Shown: positions 14,780 through 60,667, counted from the whole stretch's first letter. The stretch is 60,667 nucleotides of DNA, filler included, from 7 parts of 7 records of this genome joined end to end with filler, not necessarily neighbours in it; one strand, 5' to 3'. Notes: generated from the sequence alone by a model not told the origin. Made by a program: numbers and translations.

Positions 14780-14879
14780 NNNNNNNNNNNNNNNNNNNNN
14801 NNNNNNNNNNNNNNNNNNNNNNNTTAATTAATTAANNNNNNNNNNNNNNNNNNNNNNNNNNNNNNNNNNNNNNNNNNNN
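14780..14879. other. Artificial contig spacer
   Basis: N run with central TTAATTAATTAA (stop codons in all six frames). Confidence 0.99.
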
Positions 14880-22040: not shown

Positions 22041-22140
22041 NNNNNNNNNNNNNNNNNNNNNNNNNNNNNNNNNNNNNNNNNNNNTTAATTAATTAANNNN
22101 NNNNNNNNNNNNNNNNNNNNNNNNNNNNNNNNNNNNNNNN
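22041..22140. other. Artificial contig spacer
   Basis: N run with TTAATTAATTAA. Confidence 0.99.
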
Positions 22141-30190: not shown

Positions 30191-30290
30191 NNNNNNNNNN
30201 NNNNNNNNNNNNNNNNNNNNNNNNNNNNNNNNNNTTAATTAATTAANNNNNNNNNNNNNNNNNNNNNNNNNNNNNNNNNNNNNNNNNNNN
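30191..30290. other. Artificial contig spacer
   Basis: N run with TTAATTAATTAA. Confidence 0.99.
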
Positions 30291-35508: not shown

Positions 35509-35608
35509 NNNNNNNNNNNNNNNNNNNNNNNNNNNNNNNNNNNNNNNNNNNNTTAATTAATTAANNNNNNNNNNNNNNNNNNNNNNNNNNNNNNNNNNNN
35601 NNNNNNNN
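35509..35608. other. Artificial contig spacer
   Basis: N run with TTAATTAATTAA. Confidence 0.99.
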
Positions 35609-41490: not shown

Positions 41491-41590
41491 NNNNNNNNNN
41501 NNNNNNNNNNNNNNNNNNNNNNNNNNNNNNNNNNTTAATTAATTAANNNNNNNNNNNNNNNNNNNNNNNNNNNNNNNNNNNNNNNNNNNN
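41491..41590. other. Artificial contig spacer
   Basis: N run with TTAATTAATTAA. Confidence 0.99.
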
Positions 41591-52562: not shown

Positions 52563-52662
52563 NNNNNNNNNNNNNNNNNNNNNNNNNNNNNNNNNNNNNN
52601 NNNNNNTTAATTAATTAANNNNNNNNNNNNNNNNNNNNNNNNNNNNNNNNNNNNNNNNNNNN
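52563..52662. other. Artificial contig spacer
   Basis: N run with TTAATTAATTAA. Confidence 0.99.
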
Positions 52663-52727
52663 AGCTAATAAGCTAGGCCTGACCCCCTAATAAAAAGGGC
52701 CTTTTTTTTATTCGCGTAAATGCGGTG

Positions 52728-54542
52728 CTAGGCGGTGATGATCTTCTTGTCTCCGGTATAGGCCTCGTCGATGAGGTGCTTGAACCGCTTGGTCACACTG
52801 GCCCGCTTGATCTTCATGGTCTGGGTCAAAAGCCCGTTCTCCGAGGTGAAGCCCTGCAGGAGAAAGATGAACCGCTTGGGGATCTCGTAGGAGCCGTAGT
52901 TGGGCCGCAAATGTTGCTTGATCTCCGAGCAGATGAGCTCCAGGGTGGCATGGTGGGCCAGGACTTCTTCAGGGGAGGCTTTGAGGTGGACCGCCTTTGC
53001 ATAGGTGTGGATGGTGTCCATGTCCAGGACCACAAAGCAGATGTTGTAGGGCTTTCCGTCTCCGTAGATCATGGATGATTCCACATAGGGAAGGAAGTTG
53101 ATCTCCTCCTCCAGGGCGGCGGGAAATACGAATTTCCCGTTTTCAAGCTTGTACTGTTCCTTGATTCTGCCGGTGATGTAGAGATAGCCGTCCCGGTCGA
53201 GGCGGCCCCTGTCACCCGTGCGCATGCCCCCGTCCGGGGTGAGGGCCTCGGCGGTTTGTTCGGGGTTGTTCCGGTAGCCTTGCATGACCCCCGGGCCGTA
53301 GACGATGAGCTCGCCGTCCTCCGCGTCGGCCTCCATGCCGGATTTGTCGATTTCGATCCTCACATGCTCCAGGGGGCGTCCCACACTGCCGAACCGGTTC
53401 TGGCCGGGCCCGTTCATGGCAATGGCCGGTGAGCATTCGGTCATGCCGTAGGCGTCAAAGGTGGGGATGCCGATGTCCTCAAAGAACTGGGCGATTTCCG
53501 GGTTGGAGGTGGCGCTTGCCGTGAGGGCCCCTTCAAGCCTTCCGCCGAACCTGGCCCGGATCTTTTTGAGGACGAGCTGATCAAGGATGGCGAACTTGAG
53601 GTCTGTCGCACTTGAGCGTTTGTTTTGCTCTCCAAGCTCCCGTTTCTCCCTGGCCGCCGCAAGGGCCTGGTCAAACAGCAATTTGGTGATCCCGCCTTTT
53701 TCATTGACCCGTGAGAGGATGCCGTCATAGATTTTGTTGAAGATCCGGGGCACCCCGATCAGGAAGTGGGGCTGAAGGCTTGCCATGTCCTCGGCCAGGG
53801 TGGCGACCTTTTCCATGAAACCGATGCTGCCGCCGAACTGGATGAAGTTGACAAGCTCGGCCGTGAATCCGTAGGAGTGGGCCCAGGGAAGGATGGAGAT
53901 GCTCCTGACCTTTGGCACGAGATTGGGAAACCGCCGGTATCCCGCCCTGGCATTGGAGGTGAAGTTCCCGTGGGTCAGCATCACCCCCTTGGGGTTGCCC
54001 GTGGTGCCGGAGGTGTAGATGCAGCAGGCCGCATCGTTACAGCCGGGGGAGACGGAGGGCACGGGGGAGGCCTTGCCCTTCTCTTCGAGGCCTGCCATGG
54101 TGTCCTTGCCGTTGGCGTCGATGCAGAGCACCTTTTCCAGGGTGTCTATCTCGTCCATCAGGGGAGCCACCGCGTCAAAAATCTCCGGGGTGGAGACAAA
54201 GAGCACCTTGACGGCGCTGTCCCGGATGATGTGTCTCCAGATCCGGGGAAGCTCTTTTTCATACATGGGAGAGAACACCGCGCCAAGGCCAAAGCCCGCA
54301 AAGGCGGCCACGGCCCATTCCGTGCGGTTGTTGGCGATGATTCCCACGGTATCCCCTTTGCCGACACCGAGCAGGGCAAGGCCGGCCCTGAGGTTGTCCA
54401 CCCGGCTTCCGAATTCCCTGTAGGTGATCCAGCCGTAGCGGTTGTTGCTGTCCTTTGTCCCGAACAGGGGATTGTCCGGAAAAAGGCGAATGCTTTGTTC
54501 CAAGGTATCCACTAAATTATCGGGCTTTTCATACTCAAACAT
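52728..54542 (-). CDS. Long-chain fatty acid--CoA ligase (AMP-binding)
   Basis: YTSGTTGNPKG, YGMTE, TGDRG, GRIKE...LENGK. Confidence 0.93.
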   Translation of the reverse strand: MFEYEKPDNLVDTLEQSIRLFPDNPLFGTKDSNNRYGWITYREFGSRVDNLRAGLALLGVGKGDTVGIIANNRTEWAVAAFAGFGLGAVFSPMYEKELPRIWRHIIRDSAVKVLFVSTPEIFDAVAPLMDEIDTLEKVLCIDANGKDTMAGLEEKGKASPVPSVSPGCNDAACCIYTSGTTGNPKGVMLTHGNFTSNARAGYRRFPNLVPKVRSISILPWAHSYGFTAELVNFIQFGGSIGFMEKVATLAEDMASLQPHFLIGVPRIFNKIYDGILSRVNEKGGITKLLFDQALAAAREKRELGEQNKRSSATDLKFAILDQLVLKKIRARFGGRLEGALTASATSNPEIAQFFEDIGIPTFDAYGMTECSPAIAMNGPGQNRFGSVGRPLEHVRIEIDKSGMEADAEDGELIVYGPGVMQGYRNNPEQTAEALTPDGGMRTGDRGRLDRDGYLYITGRIKEQYKLENGKFVFPAALEEEINFLPYVESSMIYGDGKPYNICFVVLDMDTIHTYAKAVHLKASPEEVLAHHATLELICSEIKQHLRPNYGSYEIPKRFIFLLQGFTSENGLLTQTMKIKRASVTKRFKHLIDEAYTGDKKIITA

Positions 54543-54763
54543 CGTCTCTCCCTGCTATCTGATGATTAATGGTCATGGGGTGTGTTTACGCCATCCGGGC
54601 GTGAAGATCAAACCCTTTTAACGGGCTCCTTTTTAGGTGTTACTTATGGTTGTTTATGGTTGTTGTTGTCTCTATAATAGCTGTTTTGAAAAATATATTG
54701 ACTTTGATGATGGGTTCAAATAAGCGATAGCTTAAATCTGAACCTATTTAAAAAGGAGTTAGT

Positions 54764-55744
54764 ATGAAATTGATAAAACCATTACGTTCCATTGCACTTG
54801 CGTCCGCAGTGCTGTTCATGTCCACGGCCCTGGCCTTTGCCGCCCCAAAGGGCAAGGTGATCGTTTTCCATGCCGGAAGCCTCAGTGTGCCCTTTGCCAA
54901 GATTGAAAAGGATTTCGAGGCCAGCCATCCCGAAATCGACATCCTGCGGGAAGCCGGCGGCAGCACCAAGATGGCGCGGCTGATCTCCGAGGTGGGCAAA
55001 CGGGCCGACATCATGGCCTCTGCCGACTACAAGGTGATCGACAACAACCTTGTCCCCAACTTTGCCGACTGGAACATCCGGTTCGCCACCAACCAGCTCG
55101 TGCTCTGCTACACGGACCAGAGCCGGTTCAGCGACACCGTCACCAGTGACAACTGGCACGAGATCCTCACCAAAAAAGGGGTTGTCTGGGGCCATTCCGA
55201 TCCCAATCTCGATCCCTGTGGCTACCGAAGTATTATGGTACTCCAGCTTGCCGAGAAATTCTACAACATTGATGGGCTCTACCAGAAACTGATCGACAAC
55301 CGGCCCATGAAGAATGTCCGTCCCAAATCCGTGGAGCTCGTCAATCTCCTCAAGACCGGCAACATGGACTATGCCTGGGAGTACCTCTCGGTTGCGGTTC
55401 AGCACGGTCTCAAGTACGTCACCCTCAACGACCATATCAACCTTGGCAACTACAAGTACGACGCGTTTTACAAGCAGGCCAAGGTAGAGGTCACGGGAAA
55501 GAAACCCGGCACCTTCAAGACCAAAAGCGGCAAGTCCTGCACCTACGGCATCACCATGATTAAAAACAGCCCCAACCCAGAGGCGGCCGAGCTCTTCATG
55601 GACTACCTGCTCTCGGCTGACGGTGGTCTCAAGACCCTTCAGTCCATGGGCCAGCCCCCCTTTGTTCCCTGCCGGGTTTCCTCCGACGAAATGAAGGCGT
55701 CCCTGCCCGCAAGCCTTGGAAAGCGGGTGGAGGTGAAAAACTAA
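54764..55744 (+). CDS. wtpA: Tungstate/molybdate ABC substrate-binding protein, WtpA type
   Basis: [38 protein letters not shown] (Asp/Glu ligands typical of WtpA). Confidence 0.9.
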
Positions 55745-55859
55745 AATCCTCATTTGCCTTGATTCCCCCATGGGATGGTGGTAGTTTTTTGGATACCTGT
55801 CCACACCATCATGACCGCGTCGTTTCTTTTTTGTCAACATCGCAACCCAAGGGGGAACC

Positions 55860-56708
55860 ATGGTTAAATTGATCAAAGAGGAAGATGAAAAGGGGAGACT
55901 CCATATTGACACCCCGATGATGGGAGAGTCCCTTGTCAGTAAGGAGTTTCTCAAACAGACCGAGGCGGGCGAGTATTTTCACATGCACCCGGATGTGAAC
56001 GTCCTGAAGATCGGCGGCCAGAGTCTCATGGACCGTGGGGCCAAGGCCGTGCTTCCCATCCTTGACGAATTGATCAAGCTCAAGGAGGAGTACAAGATCC
56101 TGATCATGACCGGCGGGGGCACCCGGGCCCGGCACGTCTACAACATCGGCGTGGATCTGGGCATGCCCACGGGCATTCTTTCCAAACTCGGGGACAAGGT
56201 CTCCTGGCAGAACGCGGAGATGCTTTCCGCCCTCCTGGCCAAGCACGGCGGGGTGAAGATCGGCCACGGAGATAACCTTGAGCAGCTCACCATGTTTTGC
56301 CAGCTGGGGTATCTGCCCATCACCTACGGTATTCCGCCCTACGGTTTCTTCGAGCATCCGGCCGAGTTCGGCTCCATTCCGCCCCACCGCACCGACTGCG
56401 GCGCGTTCCTGCTGGCCGAGAACATCGGCGCCCGGTCCCTGATCTATCTCAAGGATGAAAAGGGGCTGTACGATAAGGATCCCAAAAAGGCGAAAAAGGG
56501 GGACAATCTCAAGTTTTACGACAGGATTTCCGTTGACGAACTCCTGGAGATCGACCTTGACGATCTGGTGATCGAGCGTCCCATATTGACTTTGATGAAA
56601 CGGTCAAAATGCCTCAAGGAGCTTCAGATCATCGATGCACTCAATCATCCCGAGTACATCGCGGCCGCCCTCGAAGGGGAGCAGGTGGGTACTGTCATCT
56701 ATAAATAA
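55860..56708 (+). CDS. Molybdenum storage protein (MosA/MosB)-like amino acid kinase-fold protein
   Basis: KIGGQS.MDRG..AV.P, TGGGTRARH.Y, QNA.ML..LLAKHG, PPY..., IPPHRTD.GAFLLAE, KDE.GLY..DP. Confidence 0.85.
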   Translation: MVKLIKEEDEKGRLHIDTPMMGESLVSKEFLKQTEAGEYFHMHPDVNVLKIGGQSLMDRGAKAVLPILDELIKLKEEYKILIMTGGGTRARHVYNIGVDLGMPTGILSKLGDKVSWQNAEMLSALLAKHGGVKIGHGDNLEQLTMFCQLGYLPITYGIPPYGFFEHPAEFGSIPPHRTDCGAFLLAENIGARSLIYLKDEKGLYDKDPKKAKKGDNLKFYDRISVDELLEIDLDDLVIERPILTLMKRSKCLKELQIIDALNHPEYIAAALEGEQVGTVIYK

Positions 56709-56722
56709 CGGGATGTTTCGAT

Positions 56723-56753
56723 CCCCCGGCTGCCCGATCAGCCGGGGGCGTTT
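56723..56753. terminator. Hairpin between convergent genes
   Basis: CCCCCGGCTG/CAGCCGGGGG stem. Confidence 0.7.
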
Positions 56754-56755
56754 CT

Positions 56756-56971
56756 CTATTTCTTTCCTGAACCGTCCCTGCTGCCTGAAACCTTGGCCGG
56801 GAGATAGACAACGTTAGCGCCGGTATCGGCTTCGATCTGTTTCAGTTCATTCTTGCGGATGTGCTTTACATAGAGTTTGATATCGCCTCCGCTGACGCCC
56901 ACGACACGGAATCTGGGCTTTTTCTCACCATCTTCGATTTTTCTTCTTTCCCTGACAAAAATCTTTGACAT
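56756..56971 (-). CDS. Small basic hypothetical protein (71 aa)
   Basis: MSKIFVRERRK...; GGGAGG RBS upstream of ATG 56971. Confidence 0.75.
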   Translation of the reverse strand: MSKIFVRERRKIEDGEKKPRFRVVGVSGGDIKLYVKHIRKNELKQIEADTGANVVYLPAKVSGSRDGSGKK

Positions 56972-57005
56972 GACCGGCCTCCCTTTGTTGCGGTTTTTGG
57001 GGGGG

Positions 57006-57061
57006 CATACTACTATAGGGTAGTATGTGTTAACACCAAGATATATCCTTAAAGGATATAT
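57006..57061. promoter_or_regulatory. Two perfect palindromes in the divergent promoter (PadR operator candidates)
   Basis: CATACTAC-N6-GTAGTATG (57006-57027) and ATATATCCTT-A-AAGGATATAT (57041-57061). Confidence 0.65.
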
Positions 57062-57077
57062 GTCAAGGAGGAGATCT

Positions 57078-57440
57078 ATGAAGAAGAACAAAAACAAGGG
57101 CCGGATTTCGGGCCGGCAGGAGCGATATATCCAGCCCTCCATCCTCATGGGGCTGCTCTCCAAGCCCTGTTACGGGTATGAGGTGATCAATACCATCCAC
57201 CATTACGGATTCATCCAGGGCCAGGCCCCGCCGGGAATGATCTACCGCCACCTCCGGGGCCTGGAGGAGGACGGCCTGGTGACCTCGGAATGGGACACCA
57301 CCGAGGCCGGGGCGGCCAAGCGCATGTACACCATCACCGGGGAGGGCCGGGAGGTGCTGGCCATCTGGATCGATTATATGGATGACCAGGCGGAAAAGCT
57401 CCGGCGGTTTGTGGCCATGTATCAGGAAAACCAGGGATGA
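57078..57440 (+). CDS. PadR-family transcriptional regulator
   Basis: YGYEV, PGMIYRHLR.LEEDGLV.SEW, KRMYTITGEG; AAGGAGG RBS. Confidence 0.92.
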   Translation: MKKNKNKGRISGRQERYIQPSILMGLLSKPCYGYEVINTIHHYGFIQGQAPPGMIYRHLRGLEEDGLVTSEWDTTEAGAAKRMYTITGEGREVLAIWIDYMDDQAEKLRRFVAMYQENQG

Positions 57441-57503
57441 CCTCCTCGCTTTGTGTCGATTTTCGTTGTTTTTTGTCTGTTTTCGGTCTTATGAAAGATA
57501 AGA

Positions 57504-57532
57504 TTGACACCTCGTAAATAAGGATCTATAAA
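57504..57532 (+). promoter_or_regulatory. Sigma70 promoter
   Basis: TTGACA-17 nt-TATAAA upstream of the 57596 operon. Confidence 0.65.
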
Positions 57533-57595
57533 ACCCTATTTGTTTCAAAACCGGCCATGAAAAGGCCGGGCGTTTAATTGTAGATCGGAGGAAGT

Positions 57596-58345
57596 GTGAA
57601 GGTACTGGTTTGTGTTGATGATACCGATAATCTTGAGACCATGGGAACGGGAAAACTCTCCCAGATCATGGCTGGAATAATAGAGGAGAAACATTGGGGA
57701 AGCTGCACCGCCGTTTCCAGGCATCAGCTTTTTGTGCACGACGATATCCCCTACACCTCCCATAACAGCTCCATGTGCTTTGGGATCGACTTTACCGGCG
57801 ACCTGGACGGATTGATCGATTTCGGCGCCGGGTTCCTGGAGGAGCGGTCGGCGGATGGCTCCGACCCCGGGTTCTGTGTGGTTCCCCTGGACGACGGCCT
57901 TGACAGGGCGGCGTTGATGGACTTTGGCCGCAGGGCAAAATGTGAGGTGCTTTCAAAGACCCTTGCCTATAATCTTGCCAAGGATCTCGGGGTGCATCTT
58001 TCCGAGCATGGCGGCACCGGCGACGGTGTGGTGGGGGCCCTTGCCGGCATCGGCCTCAGGCTTTCCGGCAATGACGGACGGTTCAGGGGCTGGGCCCGTT
58101 TCGGCGCTCCGGGCACCCTGACAACGGTTGCGACCCTCTGCTCCGAGGGGTATATCGACGGGGTAAAGACCGTTGACGGCGAACTGCTTGCCCCCGACAC
58201 CGGGATCTGGCTTGCCGCGGAAAAGGTCAAGACCATGTTCTCAAACAGCCGGCGGGTGGTCATGGTCACCCGGACCGATGCGGATCAGGGCGGGGACAAG
58301 GCCCAGTGGCGCACCCTGACCAAACCGGAGATAAGGCAATACTGA
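57596..58345 (+). CDS. TiaS N-terminal-like (DDTD motif) protein of unknown function
   Basis: VCVDDTD, GTG, RHQL, IPYTSHNSSMC, SDPG, GGTG.GVVGALAG, GNDGRF; GGAGG RBS. Confidence 0.75.
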   Translation: MKVLVCVDDTDNLETMGTGKLSQIMAGIIEEKHWGSCTAVSRHQLFVHDDIPYTSHNSSMCFGIDFTGDLDGLIDFGAGFLEERSADGSDPGFCVVPLDDGLDRAALMDFGRRAKCEVLSKTLAYNLAKDLGVHLSEHGGTGDGVVGALAGIGLRLSGNDGRFRGWARFGAPGTLTTVATLCSEGYIDGVKTVDGELLAPDTGIWLAAEKVKTMFSNSRRVVMVTRTDADQGGDKAQWRTLTKPEIRQY

Positions 58346-59142
58346 TTCCCTTCCCAAAAGCCAAAAGGCCCGATCTCTTCTGGCACTGCTTCGCGCTGTT
58401 GAGCCTTCCCCTGATCTGTCTCATCATCTTTCCGTTGGGAAAGATGATGCTCATGCCGGAGTTTTCGGACCTCATTTCCGCCCTGAAGGAGCGGGTGGTT
58501 CTGGAGGCCCTGGGCCGCTCCCTGTTCACCGCCCTGGGGGCCACCCTTGTCGCCATGGTGTTCGGCACCCCCCTTGCCTATATCATGGCACGGAAAGACT
58601 TTACCGGGAAAAAGGTGATCGAGGGCCTCATCGACCTTCCCATCATGATTCCCCACCCGGTGATCGGCATCGCCATCCTGAGCCTCTTCGGCAGGAACTC
58701 CATCCTGGGCAAAATCCTCGCCCAGGCGGGCATCGAGATCATGGGCACCCTCACCGGCATTATCATCGTCCTTGTGTTTGTGGGTGCGCCCTTTTACGTG
58801 AACACGGTCAAGGCGGGATTTGAAAGTGTTCCCGTCCGCCTTGAAAAGGCCTCCCGGACCCTTGGGGCCGGCATGACCTCCACCTTTTTCAGGGTCACCT
58901 TTCCCATTGTATGGCGCAACATGGTCCTGGGGGCAGTGATGTGCACCGCCCGGGCCATCAGCGAGTTCGGCGCCGTGATCATCGTGGCCTACCATCCCAT
59001 GACAGCCCCGGTGCTGATCTACGAGCGGTTCACCGCCTACGGCCTAAAATATTCCCAGTGCGTCGCCTTCTGGCTCATCGCCATCTCGCTTATCCTGTTT
59101 GTCATGATGCGGCTTTTTTCCAGGCAAAGGAGGGTTCAATGA
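58306..59142 (+). CDS. wtpB: Tungstate/molybdate ABC permease (start may be CTG 58342)
   Basis: GTPLAY..AR..F.GK, DLP..IPH.V.GIA, LEKASRTLGA, ARAISEFGA...AYHP. Confidence 0.9.
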   Translation: MAHPDQTGDKAILIPFPKAKRPDLFWHCFALLSLPLICLIIFPLGKMMLMPEFSDLISALKERVVLEALGRSLFTALGATLVAMVFGTPLAYIMARKDFTGKKVIEGLIDLPIMIPHPVIGIAILSLFGRNSILGKILAQAGIEIMGTLTGIIIVLVFVGAPFYVNTVKAGFESVPVRLEKASRTLGAGMTSTFFRVTFPIVWRNMVLGAVMCTARAISEFGAVIIVAYHPMTAPVLIYERFTAYGLKYSQCVAFWLIAISLILFVMMRLFSRQRRVQ

Positions 59143-60173
59143 TCGAGGTAAAGGATCTCACCATCCATCTGCCGGGGTTCACCCTGAACTCCGTGGATCT
59201 CAAGGTGGAAGACCACGATTTCTTCGCCCTGATCGGTCCCACGGGATCGGGAAAATCCCTGCTCCTCGAGGCGATCATGGGCCTGCTTCCCGTGGACGGG
59301 GGCACCATCCTCCTGAACGGCCGGGACATCACGGCCACGCCCCCGGAAGAGCGGGGCCTCGGCATCGTTTACCAGGACTATGCCCTGTTTCCCCACCTGG
59401 ATGTGAAGGCGAACATCCTCTTCGGGGTGCGCTACCACGACATCCCGGAAAAGGAGAGCCGGGAGCGGTTCCAATTCCTGGTGGACACCATGAACCTCGG
59501 CCATCTGTTGACCCGGCATCCGGGTACCCTGAGCGGCGGGGAAAAGCAGCGGGTGGCCCTGTCCCGGGCCCTGATCCTCAATCCCGGGGTAATTCTCCTG
59601 GACGAGCCCCTTTCCGCCCTCGACCCAATGCTCCAGGACGATCTCAAGAACCTTTTGAAATCCCTGCACCAGGAGTTGGGCACCACTTTTGTCATGGTGT
59701 CCCACGATTTTTCCGACGTGCTTTTCCTGGCCAACCGGGGCGCCATCATCCACAAGGGCGAAATCAAGCAGGCCGGCACGATCCGGCAGCTGTTCGAACA
59801 GCCCGCCTCACCCTTTGCGGCCAGGTTCGTGGGCATGAAGAACGTTTTTTCCATCACCCCCTGCAATGGTTCCGCCGTCACCCTCAAGGGCCTGGATCTC
59901 CAGCTCGGGCATCCGGTCACGGACCACGGCCACCTTGCCCTGCGGCCGGAAGAGATCGTCTGCGACCCCAATGGCCGCGCCGACAGTGCCAACCGCTTTC
60001 CCGGAACCATCAAAAAACTTGTGAACCGGGGGTTCTACTACGATGTTTTTATCCGGGTCCGGGAGGTGGAGTTCATGGCCCAGTGGACCCGCCGGGAGGT
60101 CCTCAAAAACAGGCTCGAGCCCGGCACCGAGACCCGGATCGCCATCCCCATCCACAGCCTGCACACCTTTTAA
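59139..60173 (+). CDS. wtpC: Tungstate/molybdate ABC ATPase with C-terminal TOBE domain
   Basis: GPTGSGKS, QDYALFPHL, LSGGEKQR, LDEPLSALD; ATGA overlap with the permease. Confidence 0.9.
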   Translation: MIEVKDLTIHLPGFTLNSVDLKVEDHDFFALIGPTGSGKSLLLEAIMGLLPVDGGTILLNGRDITATPPEERGLGIVYQDYALFPHLDVKANILFGVRYHDIPEKESRERFQFLVDTMNLGHLLTRHPGTLSGGEKQRVALSRALILNPGVILLDEPLSALDPMLQDDLKNLLKSLHQELGTTFVMVSHDFSDVLFLANRGAIIHKGEIKQAGTIRQLFEQPASPFAARFVGMKNVFSITPCNGSAVTLKGLDLQLGHPVTDHGHLALRPEEIVCDPNGRADSANRFPGTIKKLVNRGFYYDVFIRVREVEFMAQWTRREVLKNRLEPGTETRIAIPIHSLHTF

Positions 60174-60438
60174 GGGCCAAGCCGGCCCGATAAATCAAGC
60201 CCCATTCTTTCGCAAACGCTGTTTTTTCTTGACGAATCCATGGTAATTTGCAATTCATTTAAGAACCTTATCCATGAAAGACAAGCCAGAAAATATCAAC
60301 ATTCTGAATATTGTGCTGCCCGGTTTCCCAAATTTTTAATGCAGGATCAATTGGGGCGTATCCCCCATGTCCCAGGACGCCAAATGGGGGCGCCGTCACG
60401 GTTCAACATAATTAACTTTCAAATAAGGAGAAAGCATT

Positions 60439-60543
60439 ATGGGTGAAAAGGGGAAAAGAGACAAAGCCAAAAAAGATCAGCTGAAAAAGCCCCAGATGGA
60501 TATAAAGGAAAAACGCAAACTGAAAAAAGAAAAGAAGAAATAA
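60439..60543 (+). CDS. Unannotated 34-aa basic peptide
   Basis: MGEKGKRDKAKKDQLKKPQMDIKEKRKLKKEKKK*; TAAGGAG RBS. Confidence 0.65.
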   Translation: MGEKGKRDKAKKDQLKKPQMDIKEKRKLKKEKKK

Positions 60544-60667
60544 ACACCCGTGCCGTCCGGGGGCTGTTTTCTCCAGCCCCCACCCTTTCAAGCCATGTAC
60601 CCCCCCCCCATCTTGTTCTATGGCTTGACCTGCCCAGACTATTTGGTATAGGCTCCTTGAAAAACAT

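Follow-up and report, generated by a model that had tools for sequence, protein, structure and literature searches.

A split wtp locus enclosing a MoSto homologue and two uncharacterised accessory proteins: a candidate tungstate/molybdate acquisition-and-storage cluster

We analysed a stretch of DNA of 60,667 nt (the window), in which seven contigs with GC content from 0.32 to 0.59 are joined with N spacers. Entirely within its last piece (52663-60667, GC 0.56) lies a tungsten/molybdenum (W/Mo) locus where the genes of a WtpABC-type transporter accompany a homologue of the molybdenum storage protein MoSto (mosL), a gene of a small basic protein (s71), a PadR-type regulator gene (padR) and a gene of a protein with a TiaS-type kinase domain (tiaSL). 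On balance, we favour reading the locus as a cluster for acquiring and storing tungstate/molybdate, in which two accessory proteins are still uncharacterised. New here is a MoSto-type system, presumably for storage, in a one-subunit, three-gene form inside W/Mo importer operons. The open reading frames (ORFs) of the last piece follow the order acyl-CoA ligase (minus strand), wtpA, mosL, s71 (minus strand), padR, tiaSL, wtpB and wtpC, with four genes (mosL, s71, padR, tiaSL) standing between wtpA and wtpB-wtpC on one 8-kb contig. ORF calls together with NCBIfam and Pfam matches gave the same strands and the same order of the seven genes as were first described from the sequence. The features of the locus are as follows (ABC stands for ATP-binding cassette).

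54764-55744, plus strand: wtpA, binding protein for tungstate/molybdate in the periplasm; its N-terminus has a hydrophobic, signal-like stretch
55860-56708, plus strand: mosL, 282 aa, single-subunit molybdenum storage protein homologue of the amino-acid-kinase fold (Pfam AA_kinase)
56723-56748, no strand assigned: GC-rich hairpin, likely terminator, between the convergent mosL and s71; a 10-pair stem with 9 GC pairs, then CGTTTCTCTA
56756-56971, minus strand: s71, 71-aa basic protein, constant neighbour of single-subunit MosL
57006-57027, no strand assigned: inverted repeat in the s71-padR intergenic region, CATACTAC-N6-GTAGTATG, arms 100% complementary, partly kept in the related contig L001
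57041-57061, no strand assigned: palindrome, candidate PadR operator, ATATATCCTT-A-AAGGATATAT, arms 100% complementary
57078-57440, plus strand: padR, start ATG at 57078 after GGAGGAG; Pfam PadR (PF03551), 55.5 bits with a cutoff of 27
57506-57569, plus strand: promoter-like site TTGACA-17-TATAAA, read by eye, then a hairpin (57551-57569), before tiaSL
57596-58345, plus strand: tiaSL, 249 aa, a TiaS TCKD-type kinase domain (about residues 1-160) and a beta-rich C-terminal domain of about 90 aa; begins MKVLVCVDDTDN
58306-59142, plus strand: wtpB, ABC permease (Pfam BPD_transp_1)
59139-60173, plus strand: wtpC, ABC ATPase with C-terminal TOBE_2 (Pfam ABC_tran and TOBE_2)

An identical gene order, with protein identities of 88-95%, was found on L001, an independent contig of 154,642 bases from a Desulfobacterium sp. 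metagenome-assembled genome; this agreement argues against a misassembly. The syntenic contig also upholds the label of deltaproteobacterium that the original prediction had given to the host. The genome of L001 (G001), which is closely related, was used in place of the source genome.

Judged by sequence, MosL is a true relative of MoSto. In comparison with the PDB, its residues 17-280 matched A. vinelandii MosB with an E-value of 2.5e-62 (214 bits), and MosA was matched with 6e-47 (164 bits), while the best UMP kinase reached 2e-9 (40 bits). MosL belongs to the same amino-acid-kinase fold family as MoSto and keeps the nucleotide-site motifs; KIGGQS, TGGGTR, RTD and KDxxGLY were invariant among 21 aligned sequences of the MosL family. 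The residue comparison with MoSto concerns these motifs, the PDB alignments examined being those with MosB. According to passages of a published account (PMC6448029), MoSto is an (alpha-beta)3 cage whose loading depends on ATP hydrolysis and which stores Mo (more than 100 atoms) or W in polyoxometalate form; the same passages call it “rather unique ... having no known homologs”, and an excerpt of another paper (PMC13144720) places mosAB among the rarest Mo-related genes. MoSto is thus considered rare, yet the MosL family has more than 6,700 members (at E-values up to 1e-10), mostly in the single-subunit form with two constant companions.

The association with these companions was seen in an even sample of 301 genomes from the phylum of G001, where 20 genomes gave s71, 25 MosL and 20 TiaSL. 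The search detected MosL in 19 of the 20 s71 genomes, and tblastn recovered a contig-cut copy in the twentieth (G304). A single mosL was present in all 20, including G304 and G157 (where the gene is split by a frameshift), and the gap between s71 and MosL was 18-226 nt in every case. G001 itself gave one mosL match. The MosL genomes without s71 were five with two adjacent MosL genes in a MosA/MosB-like layout (G007, G019, G053, G081 and G098), where neither s71 nor TiaSL was matched, plus G129 with a partial match only. Among the TiaSL genomes 17 of 20 also had s71, and in 12 of the 20 genomes with s71 no more than 700 nt separated it from TiaSL. Whereas mosA and mosB form an adjacent alpha/beta pair, the s71-linked MosL is encoded by one gene per genome, always with s71 and usually with TiaSL; its hosts are anaerobes with Tup/Wtp tungstate transporters. 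In two genomes the module looks decayed: MosL has four in-frame stops and the TiaSL and s71 matches are truncated in G208 (C53:28625-30327), and MosL is in two overlapping pieces in G157 (C21:52239-53064).

The companion s71 is a genuine small protein that has been conserved: we counted at least 930 homologues, each about 70 aa long, including HRM2_46190 of Desulforapulum autotrophicum. No Pfam or NCBIfam family was matched at E-values up to 0.01, nor was a TOBE domain. Its predicted model has a beta-beta-beta-alpha-beta topology with moderate confidence; Foldseek found no PDB match at E-values up to 0.001, the best VIA wide score was Z 4.1, and in the ESM Atlas the fold matched only the Atlas's own unnamed clusters. 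A prediction of the 1:1 complex of MosL and s71, made without alignments or controls, scored 0.00 and has no bearing either way.

To our knowledge, post-import buffering of W/Mo in anaerobes has been described only for small TOBE proteins. Passages of one paper (PMC11980592) describe Tub as storing tungstate in Eubacterium limosum; for no other protein is tungsten storage in an anaerobe known to be documented. Like these Mop/Tub proteins (TOBE hexamers, storage proteins of about 7 kDa), s71 has about 70 residues and is encoded with W/Mo transporters. It differs from them in being strongly basic, in its predicted topology and in its tie to MosL. We considered s71 as a storage protein of the Mop/Tub type and rejected this assignment, as no TOBE domain was matched in Pfam or NCBIfam.

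TiaSL matched no Pfam family above threshold, and the NCBIfam model of TiaS aligned to it over model positions 1-154 of 422 only, with 24.8 bits at a cutoff of 600. The relationship became visible at the level of the fold. An AlphaFold2 model of TiaSL, with a predicted local distance difference test score (pLDDT) of 94.2, matched TiaS (3amt_A) with Z 21.8, a root-mean-square deviation of 1.8 Å over 155 aligned residues and 23% identity, while the next unrelated chains had Z about 6.6 or lower. Foldseek matched TiaS 4rvz with an E-value of 7e-10, and a profile of 60 TiaSL sequences matched the TiaS chains of the PDB with E-values from 5e-13 to 5e-11, the alignments ending at about residues 151-171. 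In the profile alignment, residues D8-D9-T10-D11 and T18 of TiaSL were aligned to identical residues in A. fulgidus TiaS.

TiaSL therefore keeps the N-terminal TCKD fold, the DDTD motif and Thr18 of TiaS, the archaeal tRNA(Ile2) agmatidine synthetase (PDB 3AMT, 4RVZ, 3U02). Behind the kinase domain TiaS has ferredoxin-like, OB and zinc ribbon domains. For this tRNA-binding part neither the profile nor the NCBIfam model gave a match in TiaSL, which has 249 aa compared to about 420 aa in TiaS and differs further in its own invariant motifs (RHQL, PYTSHNS, GSDPGxC and HLSEHGG), its bacterial host and its metal-importer neighbours. Because nothing that follows the kinase domain in TiaS is matched, and because the protein is bacterial and encoded with metal importers, we conclude that TiaSL is not a tRNA agmatidine synthetase. 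The earlier designation “TiaS-like enzyme” thus fits the kinase domain and does not extend to the tRNA-binding part. The C-terminal residues of TiaSL, about 90, had no usable match in the named clusters of the Atlas, and the fold searches barely probed them. The family comprises 782 representative clusters at 50% identity. Sixteen longer TiaSL-containing proteins were scanned; one carried DAO and BFD and one T_hemolysin, and the remaining 14 showed at most a sub-threshold TiaS_TCKD match. The scan gave no Mo/W lead, and some of these longer proteins may be gene-calling artefacts.

On the import side of the cluster, WtpA scored 447 bits with the NCBIfam equivalog NF003196 (cutoff 355) and 369 bits with TIGR03730 (cutoff 243) and matched Pfam SBP_bac_11. 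For the other two genes, WtpB and WtpC were the best family matches. The GTG at 58306 is the sole canonical start upstream of the WtpB-model alignment that leaves room for the N-terminus; it sits 40 nt within tiaSL, whose stop codon is at 58343-58345. This overlap, which holds if wtpB starts there, fits the coupling of the DDTD-motif protein to wtpB proposed earlier. Further downstream, wtpB and wtpC are joined by an ATGA overlap and are translationally coupled as in WtpABC. Unlike in the known transporter, wtpA is set apart from wtpBC by four genes and stands in another transcription unit, with a terminator-like hairpin following mosL. The homology calls of the original prediction (WtpA, MoSto-like, PadR and TiaS-like DDTD protein) all agreed with the matches in NCBIfam, Pfam and the PDB.

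To see which genes accompany TiaSL elsewhere, we surveyed 80 TiaSL-centred genome loci with up to 8 kb of flank, many having less. ORFs were predicted with a simple caller, and neighbours were clustered and named by the Pfam, NCBIfam and PDB matches of representatives. The counts were as follows.

Partner ABC ATPase: 53 of 80 loci
Peripla_BP_2 binding protein directly upstream of TiaSL, matching H. influenzae MolA HI_1472 (E 4e-28): 43 of 80
FecCD permease: 34 of 80
Big_5 protein: 22 of 80
MosL: 21 of 80
s71: 21 of 80
MosL and s71 together: 18 of 80
TonB receptor: 19 of 80
TupA-like protein: 7 of 80
MoeA: 7 of 80
MOT1: 6 of 80
PadR: 4 of 80
WtpA: 1 of 80 (L001)

A Mo/W marker or a MolA-like system was present in 63 of the 80 loci. 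MolABC is a type II ABC importer whose MolA binds molybdate/tungstate. The binding protein upstream of TiaSL resembles the H. influenzae system (HI1470-72) in matching HI_1472 and in being accompanied by a FecCD permease and an ATPase; such a MolA-like system is absent from the window. In 15 of the 18 loci that hold both MosL and s71, the two genes share a strand, s71 comes first and 45-88 nt separate them. In maps around the modules, locus L105 has the order tupA-tupA-tupB-tupC-TiaSL-s71-MosL, all on one strand, and its gene content is shared with L106, L107, L108, L111 and L117; L110 has wtpCBA, TiaSL, PadR, s71 and MosL, and also encodes a porin and a molybdopterin oxidoreductase. Of 16 s71-type loci, 9 had Tup, Wtp or MolA-like genes within about 7 kb, and two of four two-subunit MosL loci come after wtpABC. 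Both Thermodesulfobacteriota and Bacillota (Syntrophomonas, Desulfotomaculaceae, Heliobacteriaceae, Sporomusa) show the linkage; in Sporomusa ovata DSM 2662, TiaSL and s71-MosL occupy different loci. The gene-neighbourhood check proposed with the original prediction was run as two independent surveys with a positive outcome: the MosL-s71-TiaSL module recurs beside tupABC, wtpABC or MolA-like transporters in other genomes. Of the import, storage and regulation module proposed there, comparative genomics supports the link between import and storage, and the regulatory part was not supported, as described below.

Several observations weigh against our reading. The co-occurrence counts come from related genomes with uneven flanks and crude ORF calls and are not independent events. 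No Mo/W marker or MolA-like system was seen in 17 of the 80 TiaSL loci, some of them on short contigs, and several of these 17 carry a module of the energy-coupling factor (ECF) type (ATPase, CbiQ-like, ABC_cobalt). In the DNA examined, 59 of the 80 loci were without MosL and had FecCD- or ECF-type transporters and TonB receptors. Similarly, 6-7 of 16 s71-MosL loci had no W/Mo transporter within about 7 kb. In the window itself, WtpB and WtpC scored below the NCBIfam cutoffs (290 bits against 340 and 295 bits against 440, respectively), and the search for the palindrome at 57041-57061 gave no copy in front of wtpA or tiaSL, so that control of the transporter genes may be of another kind.

Given the predominance of importers without MosL beside TiaSL, the role of TiaSL must be broader than storage. 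It is possible, if rather unlikely, that TiaSL is a transporter-side factor outside storage, which acts on the imported substrate by handover, chelate release or chemical modification; it would then meet MosL and s71 merely because both occupy metal-uptake operons. The MolA-like binding protein directly upstream and the partner ATPase are indeed much more frequent neighbours than MosL, and the ECF-type modules and TonB receptors of other loci, as well as the overlap of tiaSL with wtpB, point in the same direction. The window protein also scores with the transporter-linked subfamily (E-value 2e-118, compared to about 1e-40 for the s71-adjacent copies). On the other hand, 11 further genomes of the sample have a second TiaSL subfamily immediately in front of s71-MosL, and the five genomes with two MosL genes had no match to either s71 or TiaSL. 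A transporter-side action would, moreover, be compatible with an acquisition-and-storage cluster.

We find it improbable that MosL is a small-molecule kinase and no metal store, with the trio acting in W/Mo cofactor synthesis or in other metabolism. Such a role is in line with the NCBI names of family members, “uridine kinase” or “amino acid kinase family protein” (JGI often has “molybdenum storage protein”), with UMP kinase models being the only NCBIfam matches of MosL, all under cutoff, and with MoeA and genes of regulators combining a helix-turn-helix (HTH) with a periplasmic-binding-protein-like (PBP-like) part as neighbours in some loci. There is also a weak fold likeness of TiaSL to pterin pyrophosphokinase, at the background level (Z 6.4-6.5). 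However, the MoSto subunits score far above any UMP kinase in the comparison with MosL, and importers are far commoner as neighbours than cofactor-synthesis genes. That a chance rearrangement placed unrelated genes inside a wtp operon is very improbable: the genes flanking the cluster are unrelated (acyl-CoA ligase in the window, LysE in L001) and the exact split wtpA / four genes / wtpBC was met only in the window and in L001/G001, but elsewhere, in two phyla, the same gene set is ordered and oriented differently and stands with different W/Mo transporter families.

Under the acquisition-and-storage reading, periplasmic WtpA together with WtpB and WtpC (membrane, ATPase) would import the oxyanion. 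MosL, as a homo-oligomeric relative of MoSto, would take it up with ATP and retain it, most probably in polyoxometalate form. Because the hosts are anaerobic and the gene context is of the Tup/Wtp type, we consider tungsten no less likely than molybdenum as the cargo. TiaSL may use ATP somewhere between import of the oxyanion and its deposition or release, for example to activate the oxyanion or to phosphorylate s71 or MosL. The small s71 could be a partner that adapts the one-subunit cage and is obligatory for that form. A more far-reaching picture, which we regard as doubtful, is that anaerobes have a previously undescribed three-protein W/Mo storage machine made of a homo-oligomeric MoSto-type cage, a basic partner of 70 residues and a TiaS-type kinase; this kinase would use ATP either for activation of the oxyanion (as an “oxyanion kinase”) or, with the cage or the partner as its phosphorylation target, for gating of loading and release, and the same kinase family would be a general cytoplasmic receiver behind at least four W/Mo importer classes.

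In the full-text literature searched (subscription journals and supplements were outside its scope), we found no TiaS-like or s71-like protein linked to MoSto or to W/Mo transport, and no earlier description of this gene combination, as the original prediction had supposed. W and Mo enzymes have a central place in the carbon, sulfur and aromatic metabolism of anaerobes. The large TiaSL family, so far without a published function, now has a testable setting. We know the TiaS kinase fold so far from one archaeal tRNA enzyme only; the context of TiaSL suggests a second role for this fold, in metal handling.

With respect to regulation, PadR probably controls s71 and padR itself, as far as can be read from the DNA, through the palindrome at 57041-57061 as a candidate operator. 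The palindrome overlaps the spacer of the predicted s71 promoter (a minus-strand promoter-like site at 57066-57038) just upstream of padR and is the sole site in the window with 0 mismatches; L001 and L049 retain it, and L110 retains one half-site. An alternative padR ATG at 57060 is in frame in the window but not in L001. The sub-arrangement of mosL convergent with s71, which in turn diverges from padR, was found again in G002, G005 and G269. Nothing links PadR to the metals W/Mo. PadR was seen with the module only in one Desulfobacteraceae-like subgroup, while other lineages have an HTH+PBP-like regulator; with the palindrome confined to the padR-s71 intergenic region, the “regulation module” proposed earlier was not borne out. 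In L108 (2208-3152) and L117 (1691-2563), regulators of about 300 aa adjoin tupABC-TiaSL-s71-MosL in place of PadR; they have an N-terminal HTH, and the C-terminal part matches the PBP-like end of PRK14498. Such regulators beside tup look TunR-like. The promoter-like site before tiaSL was unreported by the promoter scan because its second hexamer ends in A. No Rfam family reached the gathering score in a scan of the whole window, hence no molybdenum cofactor (Moco) riboswitch was detected.

Contigs from RNA libraries of marine sediment (X4-X7, one study), 90-99% like the window, span mosL and s71 and also parts of wtpA, tiaSL, wtpB and wtpC; they come from relatives and hence say nothing on transcription in the source organism or on relative levels. 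In two runs of this study, contigs end with Illumina adapter sequence at window positions 57013-57017, inside the first inverted repeat; this hints only very faintly, if at all, at where the s71 transcript has its 5' end.

As for the remaining window, paired 44-N spacers are located at 14780-14879, 22041-22140, 30191-30290, 35509-35608, 41491-41590 and 52563-52662. Genes interrupted at segment ends (IMPDH, AdoHcyase, GltX) are consistent with joined contigs. Some segments have Bacteroidota-like genes (Por_Secre_tail, DUF3810), and because of these genes and of the range of GC content, the window may mix organisms.

Some further genes were observed near TiaSL and MosL in the surveyed loci. Directly downstream of TiaSL, 21 of the 80 loci encode a conserved acidic protein of about 70 aa with the motif CYNC(R/K)(Y/F)RRW...C (for example, L017:8778-8990 and L034:8758-8967); it has no Pfam or NCBIfam family, and s71 was in the same locus in only 2 of the 21 cases. 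A third transporter type, ECF-type, is located upstream of TiaSL in L034 (3155-7970), L041 (3158-7943), L042 and L021, with a TonB receptor (or Big_5 proteins), a fused or double ABC ATPase, a CbiQ-like T component and an ABC_cobalt-like membrane protein. Beside MosL, L110 (9765-11057) and L117 (8052-9398) encode outer-membrane porins (Porin_O_P, Porin_5), and L105 and L111 have ORFs of similar size, without a Pfam match, at the porin position. Between wtpABC and two adjacent MosL genes, L121 (5347-7058) and L122 (3626-5337) have genes for conserved proteins, 194 aa and 374 aa long, that match no Pfam family. Finally, a DUF364 protein (“putative heavy-metal chelation”) is encoded in L115 (9734-10486) beside ModB-like and WtpC-like genes and s71-MosL.

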